Shown in pieces: positions 444 through 4,268 of a DNA stretch of 4,268 nucleotides. Position 1 is the first letter of the stretch, and each line of letters starts with the position of its first letter. A program made the position numbers and the translations under genes. The notes below the pieces were generated by a model. The model saw only the letters and a program-made list of their open reading frames with translations. It made no database searches and was not told the origin of the DNA. The DNA comes from a virus (lineage: Duplodnaviria; Heunggongvirae; Uroviricota; Caudoviricetes), in IMG/VR virus record IMGVR_UViG_2698536571_000008; one strand, written 5' to 3'.

Positions 444-731
444 TCAATCCTGCTCAAGATTGTAGATGAGTTTATTCTTCAGCAAAAGCAGAAAACCAGC
501 CTTAAAACCAATCTCTTTCAAAACCCGTAATGATGTGACAAATTCGTCCTCACGCAAAATAAAACCGTCCGTCAGAAGTCCATTACAAAAATAAAATAAC
601 ACAGCACCGCTCTTCCTTTGTTGAGATTGCAAACATCTAATGCGGCAATGGCTGACAATCGCTCCATTCTCAACGCGCACAGCATAGAGGCCATTTTCAC
701 TAAAAATTTCACGCAATTCTTCGATTTTCAT
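444..731 (-). CDS. Hypothetical small phage protein (95 aa)
   Basis: ATG at 729-731 preceded by GGAAGGA with an 8-nt spacer; TGA stop at 444-446. It lies downstream of a predicted promoter and upstream of the ORF at 52-405. No family recognised. Confidence 0.5.
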   Translation of the reverse strand: MKIEELREIFSENGLYAVRVENGAIVSHCRIRCLQSQQRKSGAVLFYFCNGLLTDGFILREDEFVTSLRVLKEIGFKAGFLLLLKNKLIYNLEQD

Positions 732-812: not shown

Positions 813-840
813 ATTCTATCTGCGAAGGTGCGCGAATCAA
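813..840 (-). promoter_or_regulatory. Putative sigma70-type promoter for the 444..731 gene
   Basis: On the minus strand, -35 TTGATT (840..835) and -10 TAGAAT (818..813) are separated by a 16-nt spacer, about 80 nt upstream of the ATG at 731. The same two hexamers recur at the predicted hok promoter. Confidence 0.35.
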
Positions 841-850
841 ATTCACCGGA

Positions 851-905
851 AATAAACAACAAAAAACCCGCCGAAACGCTGAGAGATCACAGCGATGGGC
901 GGGTT
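851..905 (-). terminator. Rho-independent terminator for the mok/hok transcript
   Basis: Two-tier hairpin: outer stem 865-872 (AACCCGCC) with 898-905 (GGCGGGTT), inner stem 877-881 with 890-894. On the minus strand it is followed by a U-rich tract (TTTTGTTGTTTATT, plus 851-864). It sits about 75 nt downstream of the hok stop. Confidence 0.55.
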
Positions 906-944
906 AAGTGCGGGTGCGTTGAGGATGCCTGACACATCAGAGGT

Positions 945-972
945 GGGCGGGGATGGGATCAGCTCCCCGCCC
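945..972 (-). other. GC-rich perfect 9-bp hairpin 9 nt downstream of the hok stop; possible 3' structural element of the hok mRNA
   Basis: GGGCGGGGA (945-953) and TCCCCGCCC (964-972) are exact reverse complements around a 10-nt loop. No U tract follows on either strand, so it is not called a terminator. Confidence 0.3.
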
Positions 973-980
973 GGTCACTC

Positions 981-1136
981 TTACTTCCTGGATTCGTAGT
1001 CTACGAAGACAGCGACCTCCGTCTGGCCGGTTCGGATTCGTACCTCACAGAGGTCTTTCCTCGTTACCAGTGCCGTCACTATGACGGTTAAACAGATGAC
1101 GATCAGGGCGATTAACATCGCCTTTTGCTGCTTCAT
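981..1136 (-). CDS. hok: Hok/Gef-family type I toxin (51 aa small membrane peptide)
   Basis: Translation MKQQKAMLIALIVICLTVIVTALVTRKDLCEVRIRTGQTEVAVFVDYESRK has the Hok signature: a single transmembrane helix, the TRKDLCEV motif and the conserved C-terminal region. It is very close to E. coli HokC/HokD as I remember them, with a different C-terminal tail. ATG at 1134-1136 is preceded by AGGAG with a 9-nt spacer; TAA stop at 981-983. Confidence 0.85.
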   Translation of the reverse strand: MKQQKAMLIALIVICLTVIVTALVTRKDLCEVRIRTGQTEVAVFVDYESRK

Positions 1137-1193
1137 AGCCTGCTTCTCCTTGCCTTTCGGCATGTAAGAGGCTAACCTACATGTGCAAAGCAT
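981..1193 (-). CDS. mok: Mok-like regulatory reading frame (70 aa): an in-frame N-terminal extension of hok
   Basis: ATG at 1191-1193 is preceded by GAGG with an 8-nt spacer. The N-terminal extension MLCTCRLASYMPKGKEKQA resembles the MokC extension (MLNTCR...KEKRAMKQHKAM) as I recall it, and is in the same frame as hok. Confidence 0.55.
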   Translation of the reverse strand: MLCTCRLASYMPKGKEKQAMKQQKAMLIALIVICLTVIVTALVTRKDLCEVRIRTGQTEVAVFVDYESRK

Positions 1194-1256
1194 GAAATTG
1201 GCCTCAGATTAATGTTAAGCGTCTTGCCGGACGCGTAATGTTAACTGGGGCTTTTC
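1185..1256 (+). ncRNA. sok: Putative Sok-like antisense RNA covering the mok translation-initiation region
   Basis: Inferred from hok/sok locus architecture. Plus-strand candidate promoter: -35 TTGCCT (1150-1155), 17-nt spacer, weak -10 TAACCT (1173-1178). Plus-strand stem 1201-1207 with 1245-1251 (one G-U pair) is followed by TTTT at 1252-1255. The transcript would be about 70 nt and complementary to the mok SD and start. Boundaries are approximate. Confidence 0.3.
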
Positions 1257-1312
1257 TCTATCTGCCTTTTGGTGTTCATGCCTGAAGCAGATAGCCTCAA
1301 GCACCCGCAGTC

Positions 1313-1342
1313 ATTCTACTTACCTCGCCAATATGAAATCAA
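1313..1342 (-). promoter_or_regulatory. Putative sigma70-type promoter for the mok/hok mRNA
   Basis: On the minus strand, -35 TTGATT (1342..1337) and -10 TAGAAT (1318..1313) with an 18-nt spacer. This gives a leader of about 110 nt before the mok ATG, consistent with the long structured leaders of hok mRNAs. Confidence 0.4.
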
Positions 1343-3356: not shown

Positions 3357-3560
3357 NNNNNNNNNNNNNNNNNNNNNNNNNNNNNNNNNNNNNNNNNNNN
3401 NNNNNNNNNNNNNNNNNNNNNNNNNNNNNNNNNNNNNNNNNNNNNNNNNNNNNNNNNNNNNNNNNNNNNNNNNNNNNNNNNNNNNNNNNNNNNNNNNNNN
3501 NNNNNNNNNNNNNNNNNNNNNNNNNNNNNNNNNNNNNNNNNNNNNNNNNNNNNNNNNNNN
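3357..3560. other. Run of 204 N (masked or unsequenced), hiding the 3' end of the replication-initiator gene and the 5' end of the DnaC-like gene
   Basis: Directly visible. Confidence 1.
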
Positions 3561-3818
3561 CGCGAACAGGCCCTGGTATTCATTGGCGATGCTGTGTCGA
3601 ATCACCTGCTCAGGTGTAAAACCCTGCTGACGGAATTTTTCCAGTTCCCGTATCGCCCCGTTAGCGCCCTGCTCCGTTCGAATCGGTTTTCGCAATGCCT
3701 GTCTGAACCGGACCCACTCATGCCAGAGTGTTTCCGGCAACCAATCGGGCAGCTCAATAGCCTCCGGCTCGAATTTTTTAGACGCTCGTTTTTGGCGAGG
3801 GGGAGATCAGTATTTAGA

Positions 3819-3863
3819 TCTTCCTCTTCCTCTTCCTCTTCCTCTTCCTCTTCCTCTTCCTCT
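3819..3863. repeat. Perfect hexanucleotide tandem repeat (TCTTCC)7.5, which on the minus strand is (GAGGAA)n encoding Glu14 in the linker frame
   Basis: Seven complete TCTTCC units plus TCT, counted base by base. The plus-strand reading (poly-Ser in ORF 3207..3878) is the antisense artefact. Confidence 0.95.
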
Positions 3864-3966
3864 GGTAACGCTTTTTGATCCGTTTGTGTAACGCTGGCAG
3901 CGTTACCTTTTCGTTTCAGTTCGCGTATTTTTGTTACTCGCTCGTTTGTAACCGCCCGTTTTTTTT
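3864..3966. other. Iteron-like repeat cluster plus T-rich tract inside the replication-initiator linker region; candidate phage replication origin
   Basis: 19-bp palindrome GTAACGCTG-G-CAGCGTTAC (3888-3906). Further GTAAC(G/C)C or GTTAC-containing copies at 3865-3871, 3933-3941 and 3948-3955. Recurring CGTTTGT(G)TAAC at 3881-3892 and 3942-3952. T8 tract at 3959-3966. Confidence 0.3.
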
Positions 3967-4171
3967 AGAGCTTTTTCCGTTATGACGTTCAAAGTTAGGT
4001 AGAGAAAGCCCTCCGTCATTTTCGACCAGCCATCCAACCTGAATTAACGCATCAGCAAAACCAGACATAAAAGTGATGCGATCTATTGCACTTTTTGTAA
4101 CGCCGCGAGCGTTACAATCTGCATTACCGTCTATCATTTGTTGATCCGCCCATGCCCAGAAGCGAATAACC

Positions 4172-4268
4172 TGAGGTAGCCTGAGTTTAACGGACACTCC
4201 TTCCTGAAATAGAATGGCATCAGAAGGAGCTAATAATGAGCAGAAAAACCCAACGTTACTCTAAAGAG
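4172..4268 (+). mobile_element. Left end of an IS3-family insertion sequence (IS600-like), partial; continues beyond the window
   Basis: Terminal sequence TGAGGTAGCCTGAGTTTAACGGACAC starts with TG and has a GGACAC box about 20 nt in, as in IS3-family left inverted repeats. The orfA start lies 64 nt inside the end. The N-terminal peptide MSRKTQRYSKE fits the IS3-family OrfA pattern (basic residues, then Y/F-S-x-E-F-K). Confidence 0.5.
4236..4268 (+). CDS. IS3-family transposase OrfA, first 11 codons only
   Basis: ATG at 4236 is preceded by AAGGAG (4223-4228) with a 7-nt spacer. Translation is MSRKTQRYSKE and the frame is open to the window edge. Confidence 0.45.
   Translation, partial: MSRKTQRYSKE

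Follow-up and report, generated by a model that had tools for sequence, protein, structure and literature searches.

The closest characterised relative of the locus analysed here is hokW-mokW-sokW of the Stx2 phages 933W and Sakai prophage 5 (Sp5) (AF125520; PMC8621323), a cassette that is also present in VT2-Sakai and other Stx phages and is annotated there as mokW, hokW and sokW. HokW is toxic, localises to the inner membrane and is neutralised by sokW, a protection that is lost when the sokW -10 is mutated, and after induction HokW aids lysis and phage release (PMC8621323). The R1 hok/sok (parB) system is plasmid-borne and has proven post-segregational killing, and hokD (relF) lies in the Qin prophage of E. 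coli K-12. A recent survey collected 44,248 Hok homologues and found them enriched in prophages (bioRxiv 10.1101/2025.08.07.668861); according to work cited in that survey, the chromosomal hokA, hokB and hokC loci have complete elements and show no post-segregational killing.

We examined a hok locus in a 4,268-nucleotide stretch of viral DNA (IMG/VR record IMGVR_UViG_2698536571_000008; hereafter the window, numbered from its first letter). Positions 1342..861 of the minus strand most probably form a complete type I toxin-antitoxin cassette, hok/mok/sok, that belongs to the HokD/HokW subgroup and is carried by a degraded lambdoid prophage in a Shigella-type genome (probability about 0.85, from sequence comparison). 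The locus is already known, in that its toxin is named HokD in RefSeq, its family is listed in PHROGs and a near-identical relative has been characterised experimentally. An initial sequence-only reading had proposed a complete module at 981-1342, and every sequence-level hallmark of such a module that was tested was found, Sok as a predicted RNA. Nearly all the elements lie where that reading placed them; its limits fell short, as fbi and the terminator extend the cassette to 861 (Table 1).

Compared with 933W, the cassette shares about 92% DNA identity. The two Hok peptides differ at one residue, Glu50 in HokW and Arg50 in the window (VDYESEK vs VDYESRK), and Mok is 96% identical to MokW, with three residues different. 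The predicted Sok has the same position and length, its terminator hairpin is identical, and the promoter hexamers, tac and fbi are the same, whereas the 3' hairpin loop and the terminator differ and the Sok recognition tail carries seven substitutions. The 933W cassette lies near the right end beside a YgiW-like gene, while that of the window lies in the nin region adjoining QueH, in a prophage that, unlike 933W and Sp5, is defective.

K-12 hokD encodes a Hok 90% identical to that of the window and shares the 3' UTR with fbi, the terminator stem and the downstream neighbour rem. Its homology to the window starts only at the hok ribosome-binding site, with relE of relBE upstream instead, so that K-12 hokD is without tac, mok start, Sok target and Rfam match, whereas the window keeps the full leader. 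The synteny of hok and rem in a lambdoid nin region, together with the 90% peptide identity, identifies the window locus as an ortholog of K-12 hokD. The peptides end differently (TAYEPEE in K-12 HokD, VDYESRK here), and in its C-terminus the window Hok is closer to HokW than to HokD. The contrast with K-12 hokD in what lies upstream was correctly noted at the outset; the C-terminus was also thought distinctive, which the VDYESEK of 933W HokW and the MDYEPR/K of Photorhabdus Hok rule out, the ending being of HokW type. The R1 locus has the same order of elements, its mok likewise extends hok in frame by 19 codons and has GAGG placed 8 nt ahead of the start codon, and the R1-type hok mRNA adopts the same 5'-3' closed fold (z -8.0) and belongs to the same Rfam family (87 bits), but R1 Hok is only 41% identical to the window Hok and the leader sequence has diverged.

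Table 1. Elements assigned to the cassette, in window coordinates.
Feature	Coordinates	Strand	Details
hok promoter-like site	1313..1342	-	-35 TTGATT 1342-1337, 18-nt spacer, -10 TAGAAT 1318-1313; promoter scan
Predicted full-length hok mRNA	861..1306	-	About 446 nt, from GGGUGCUUGAGG to the U-run
hok mRNA leader	1131..1306	-	5' hairpin, Sok-target/terminator hairpin, mok and hok ribosome-binding regions; Rfam RF01794
tac element	1295..1306	-	GGGUGCUUGAGG, at the mRNA 5' end; base-paired to 924-912 in the predicted fold
mok reading frame	981..1193	-	70 codons and stop; 19-codon in-frame extension of hok; GAGG 8 nt before AUG
hok toxin gene	981..1136	-	51 codons (1136-984) and stop (983-981); own ATG behind AGGAG
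GC-rich hairpin after the hok stop codon	945..972	-	GGGCGGGGA/UCCCCGCCC; 9-bp stem, 10-nt loop
fbi element	912..924	-	CCUCAACGCACCC; complementary to tac, one bulged C
hok mRNA terminator	861..905	-	8-bp G+C-rich outer stem (905-898 with 872-865), 5-bp inner hairpin, U6; fold
Sok promoter (by homology)	1150..1178	+	-35 TTGCCT 1150-1155, 17-nt spacer, -10 TAACCT 1173-1178
Predicted Sok RNA	1185..1255	+	71 nt; 5' tail over the mok start region, long terminator hairpin, U-run

Toxin gene, mok reading frame and Sok

The hok open reading frame translates to a 51-residue peptide, MKQQKAMLIALIVICLTVIVTALVTRKDLCEVRIRTGQTEVAVFVDYESRK, ending FVDYESRK. Pfam HOK_GEF (PF01848) matches it over profile positions 1-42 of 42 at 81.1 bits (E 4e-23; cut-off 22), in agreement with the earlier description of Hok as intact, and PHROG 251 ('MokW-like host killing') matches the peptide at 112 bits. 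The search for Hok homologues found 625, and every one with a name is a Hok family toxin. The NCBIfam models stayed under their cut-offs (55 against 73 for the Hok subfamily model, and likewise for HokA), scores that are uninformative either way given those of Pfam and PHROG. The exact protein stands in RefSeq as WP_014532198.1, named HokD, and the exact Hok and Mok proteins each occur in at least 1000 contigs, mostly Shigella, and are named from Shigella sonnei and S. flexneri.

The in-frame Mok extension claimed from the sequence was recovered as a 70-residue open reading frame beginning at 1193, and mok is predicted to overlap hok from this upstream start, with a ribosome-binding site of its own. 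Its extension follows a pattern, MxxxxRLASYxPKGKExxA, that recurs in Escherichia, Photorhabdus, Pantoea and Citrobacter loci, and a 19-codon extension of the same pattern is present in about 30 loci and in the R1-type locus. By analogy with described systems, we infer that hok is translated through coupling to mok. Two short plus-strand open reading frames, at 953-1084 and 1269-1361, were considered as further genes and found to be without support.

Near the end of hok, the hexamer UACGAA (992-997 on the minus strand, codons Tyr47-Glu48) is invariant in 32 of 32 aligned loci, synonymous positions included. In the window the site reads CUACGAA, and the TadA editing site is retained in this allele; studies cited in the survey report that A-to-I editing by TadA recodes that Tyr to Cys in hokC, hokD and hokE (bioRxiv 10.1101/2025.08.07.668861).

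The 71-nt sokW misc_RNA annotated in 933W projects through a gap-free alignment onto 1185-1255 of the plus strand, which makes the span first suggested for a Sok-like antisense, 1185-1256, essentially exact. The predicted RNA would start at 1185, seven nucleotides after the -10, and its fold is a long hairpin with CUUUU directly behind it (-30.2 kcal/mol, z -5.5), in line with the position and terminator of the early proposal. Its promoter was not flagged by the simple scan: the -10 TAACCT has three of six consensus matches, below the scan threshold. The Sok promoter hexamers are nevertheless identical to those of 933W and Sp5, with one difference in the spacer, and primer YO-421, which alters the sokW -10 (the equivalent of TAACCT here), yields a promoter-less sokW that has lost its antitoxin activity (PMC8621323).

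The predicted Sok was compared with loci L005, L012 and L014. It departs from SokW of 933W at seven positions, every one of them in its first 16 nt (1185-1200 on the plus strand), and has an identical hairpin body. Two paralogues that share the genome of S. flexneri SFBU1023 with this allele differ from it at 8-9 positions, with 7-8 of the differences in the same 5' stretch and one in the hairpin loop.

Leader, fold and covariation of the hok mRNA

A promoter scan detected the hok promoter-like site with 9 of 12 matches, where 0.5 sites are expected in the region, in keeping with the claim that the locus has its own promoter. These hexamers place the +1 of the transcript at about 1306, on GGGUGCUUGAGG. 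The position of the -10 is kept in 30 related loci of the alignment, the -35 lies outside the conserved cassette, and homology to 933W starts just upstream of the -10. Relative to E. coli O18, a 10-nt deletion just upstream of the -10 has changed the -35 and created the alternative one detected by the scan. The same simple scan for promoters and terminators flagged neither the Sok promoter nor any terminator, and both were therefore assigned by homology and folding.

Rfam gives a single hit in the window, RF01794 ('sok'), which spans model positions 1-157 of 157 and scores 117 bits (E 3.7e-27), where the gathering score is 59. As controls, intact loci score 87-120 bits, with 87 for the R1-type locus and 113.5 for 933W, and four leaderless loci, K-12 hokD among them, gave no match to this model. 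The match lies on the hok-sense (minus) strand and ends on the hok AUG, as it does in twelve control loci; the model therefore represents the leader of the hok mRNA, and its middle portion, once reverse-complemented, corresponds to Sok.

The minimum-energy fold of the hok mRNA (1306..861) has -189.6 kcal/mol (z -8.4 vs shuffles) and is closed by 5'-3' pairing, with a tac-fbi helix of 12 pairs (1306-1295 with 924-912). The mok GAGG and AUG and the hok AGGAG and AUG all lie inside helices of this full-length fold. A disrupted leader or tac/fbi pairing had been named beforehand as the mark of an inactive locus; both are intact here, with RF01794 matched over its full length at 117 bits and 12 pairs in a covarying helix. 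At the 3' end, the GC-rich hairpin predicted to follow the stop codon was found at exactly 972..945, and its stem is conserved in 32 of 32 loci (helix 18, 99% of cells paired), with a loop that is longer in the window than in relatives. The terminator that had also been called is seen in the fold at 905..861, although the simple scan did not flag it; in relatives the outer stem is the same and is capped by a short UUCG loop, where the window copy has a 23-nt loop insertion. When the 3' end was trimmed in silico, the 5' end refolded and the mok start stayed paired, so this fold does not reproduce the activation step. Since thermodynamic prediction is unable to settle a kinetic pathway, the trimmed-mRNA fold was not used as evidence.

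For the comparative analysis, a single-protein query against one genome per species returned 47 loci, and the alignment comprises 32 full-length ones (Escherichia, Shigella, Kluyvera, Photorhabdus, Pantoea and Citrobacter, with 933W and E. coli O18); the set covers the HokC/D/W-like branch, and one R1-type locus was fetched separately. With the window structure projected onto the 32 loci, 80% of cells are paired, against 37-43% (about 41%) when the partners are shifted by 1-3 columns. Because the projected structure is that of the window itself, the paired percentage is overestimated, a bias from which pairs changed on both sides are free. There are 46 such double changes, against a shuffle mean of 34.6, and none of 500 shuffles reached 46. 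One of the tac-fbi pairs, U4-A392 (columns 94/501), about 390 nt apart in the molecule, is U-A in 17 loci and C-G in 12, and the 5' hairpin and the Sok-target hairpin have several double changes, e.g. A-U 21 / G-C 9 and G-C 19 / A-U 9. Divergence of the window from its HokD/HokW relatives is concentrated at 1201-1187 (the Sok 5' tail and its target), 1006-947 (the Hok C-terminus and the 3' hairpin loop) and 901-872 (the terminator loop).

Two of the loci collected have unusual upstream regions. In Photorhabdus khanii (L044), the leader match at 1956-2103 lies about 400 nt upstream of Hok at 2501-2650, which suggests an insertion or a second locus, and in a Kluyvera locus (L039) a relE-like 3' end replaces the leader upstream of 2501, as in K-12 hokD.

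Setting in the prophage remnant

The gene order in the nin region is QueH - hok - rem - NinB-like gene. The upstream neighbour is QueH (Pfam, 220.8 bits) and not relBE, as first stated from the sequence; in K-12 hokD, relE replaces the whole leader. This neighbourhood is by no means unusual, since the stretch comprising the end of QueH and hok (match covering at least 80%) is shared by at least 782 of 5426 complete E. coli genomes. Two complete 'E. coli' genomes match a 581-nt region at 100% identity, and in them RefSeq annotates hokD adjoining QueH. Downstream of hok, a 95-codon open reading frame (444-731, minus strand) belongs to the Rem family (PF27490, precomputed; phrog_340), with synteny as in K-12 Qin, and is preceded by a promoter-like TTGATT-16-TAGAAT at 813-840 (minus strand) whose hexamers are those of the hok promoter.

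The prophage fragment spans 4.07 kb between two ends of IS3-family (IS600-like) elements in direct orientation. The left end (1-98) holds the 3' end of orfB (..REKYHQMAA, stop at 52-54), the right end (4172-4268) holds the start of orfA (MSRKTQRYSKE, from 4237), and a full 1264-bp IS600-like copy is present elsewhere (L045, 358-1621). With IS600-like ends in the same orientation at both ends of the window, the fragment with hok/sok and QueH is bracketed in the manner of a composite element. IS elements truncate both the NinB-like DUF1367 gene and the replication-initiator gene, and the latter (phrog_2509; 3700-4197, minus strand) is a pseudogene, with its 5' end cut by the IS and with frameshifts. 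Where an intact copy (L001, 8963-9745) reads A6, the pseudogene reads A8; it has also lost 10 nt relative to that copy, and a perfect (TCTTCC) repeat at 3819-3863, encoding Glu-Glu on the coding strand, has 7.5 copies in the window and 2.5 in L001.

Two genome records (L054 and L056) match the window at 100% identity outside masked runs and this repeat tract. In these the tract is 12 nt (L054) and 6 nt (L056) shorter, with a single gap each, probably reflecting one or two fewer repeat units. The N runs at 2070-2263 (194 N) and 3357-3560 (204 N) correspond to 476 and 253 nt, respectively, in both records, so the masks do not preserve length. The first hides a 118-codon open reading frame between DUF977 and QueH whose function is unassigned, and the second covers the stretch where the replication-initiator gene meets a DnaC-like gene.

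In six genomes with the exact Mok protein, IS elements have struck varying neighbours of the cassette (QueH, rem, the DnaC-like gene, DUF1367). The 496-nt cassette itself, compared in nine genomic copies, varies by 0-2 bases (99.6-100% identical). Intact, near-identical cassettes amid IS damage are compatible with selection for retention, short of a demonstration of it.

Proposed mechanism, alternative readings and meaning

The mechanism proposed below is modelled on R1 hok/sok and Sp5 hokW-sokW, and what the window itself displays are its sequence elements. The weak promoter at 1342..1313 would produce a stable mRNA of about 446 nt. In this molecule tac, at the 5' end, would pair with fbi, at the 3' end, burying the mok and hok ribosome-binding sites and start codons, and the full-length mRNA is proposed to be inert because this pairing locks it. 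Slow trimming of the 3' end would then take off fbi and allow refolding, after which mok would be translated and hok with it by coupling. A short-lived 71-nt Sok (1185-1255, plus strand), made from its own promoter within the mok/hok start region, would pair over the mok start, block translation and mark the duplex for RNase III. Once Sok synthesis stops, leftover mRNA would yield Hok, a predicted 51-residue inner-membrane peptide expected to collapse the membrane potential.

What the cassette does for its present host can be read in more than one way. Co-resident hok/sok paralogues of Shigella may be insulated from one another by diversification of the first ~16 nt of Sok, each with a private antidote; the pattern of differences in the Sok 5' tail would be expected if paralogous antitoxin RNAs are insulated from cross-reaction. 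In addition, addiction-type retention of the 4-kb fragment that carries QueH between IS600-like ends could lie behind the intactness of the cassette. Taken jointly, these two readings are tentative and more likely wrong than right. Stabilisation, abortive infection and persistence, the roles that the sequence-only reading raised for hok in prophages, are general lore of the family.

The cassette could instead be complete in sequence yet physiologically silent, repressed by Sok with no natural condition that activates it, and persist as a small and recent element that is costly to lose. We consider this unlikely. In its favour, the sole function demonstrated for the nearest relative, assistance in lysis and phage release upon induction (PMC8621323), is inapplicable to the window because its prophage is dead (IS cuts at both ends, frameshifts in the replication initiator), and copies that are 99.6-100% identical carry no signal of purifying selection. 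Against it, the regulatory elements are all intact, the exact allele survives in many differently rearranged remnants, Hok is one residue from a demonstrably toxic peptide, and, should the mRNA be produced, the cell could tolerate the locus only with Sok still active. It is highly improbable that a subtle lesion (the shifted -35, Arg50, or a loop insertion of the 3' hairpin or the terminator) blocks toxin production and makes the locus an inactivated remnant like several K-12 hok loci. The 10 nt lost just upstream of the -10 in comparison with O18, the loop insertion in the 3' hairpin and the 23-nt one in the terminator loop, both specific to this allele, and the concentration of divergence at 1006-947 and 901-872 would fit such a lesion. 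Against it, 1342..861 is uninterrupted by frameshift, stop or IS and retains tac and fbi, the ribosome-binding sites and start codons of mok and hok, and the Sok promoter hexamers. The locus also scores as high in Rfam as intact ones do, the deletion supplies an alternative -35 seen by the scan, and the insertions lie in loops and spare the stems.

Read as a complete hok/mok/sok cassette, the locus has small significance beyond its correct annotation. RefSeq records list the hokD gene alone, leaving mok, Sok and the 3' UTR elements unannotated, and automated strand calls could be misled, as RF01794 'sok' reports the hok-sense strand, opposite to the real Sok gene. Since K-12 hokD is without the leader, the window shows the complete ancestral form of the truncated K-12 locus. 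The family gains one natural variant, with Arg50 and a private Sok 5' tail, and a tidy example of a toxin-antitoxin cassette outliving its prophage. If the reading of private antidotes is true, each hok/sok copy would keep its own antidote.
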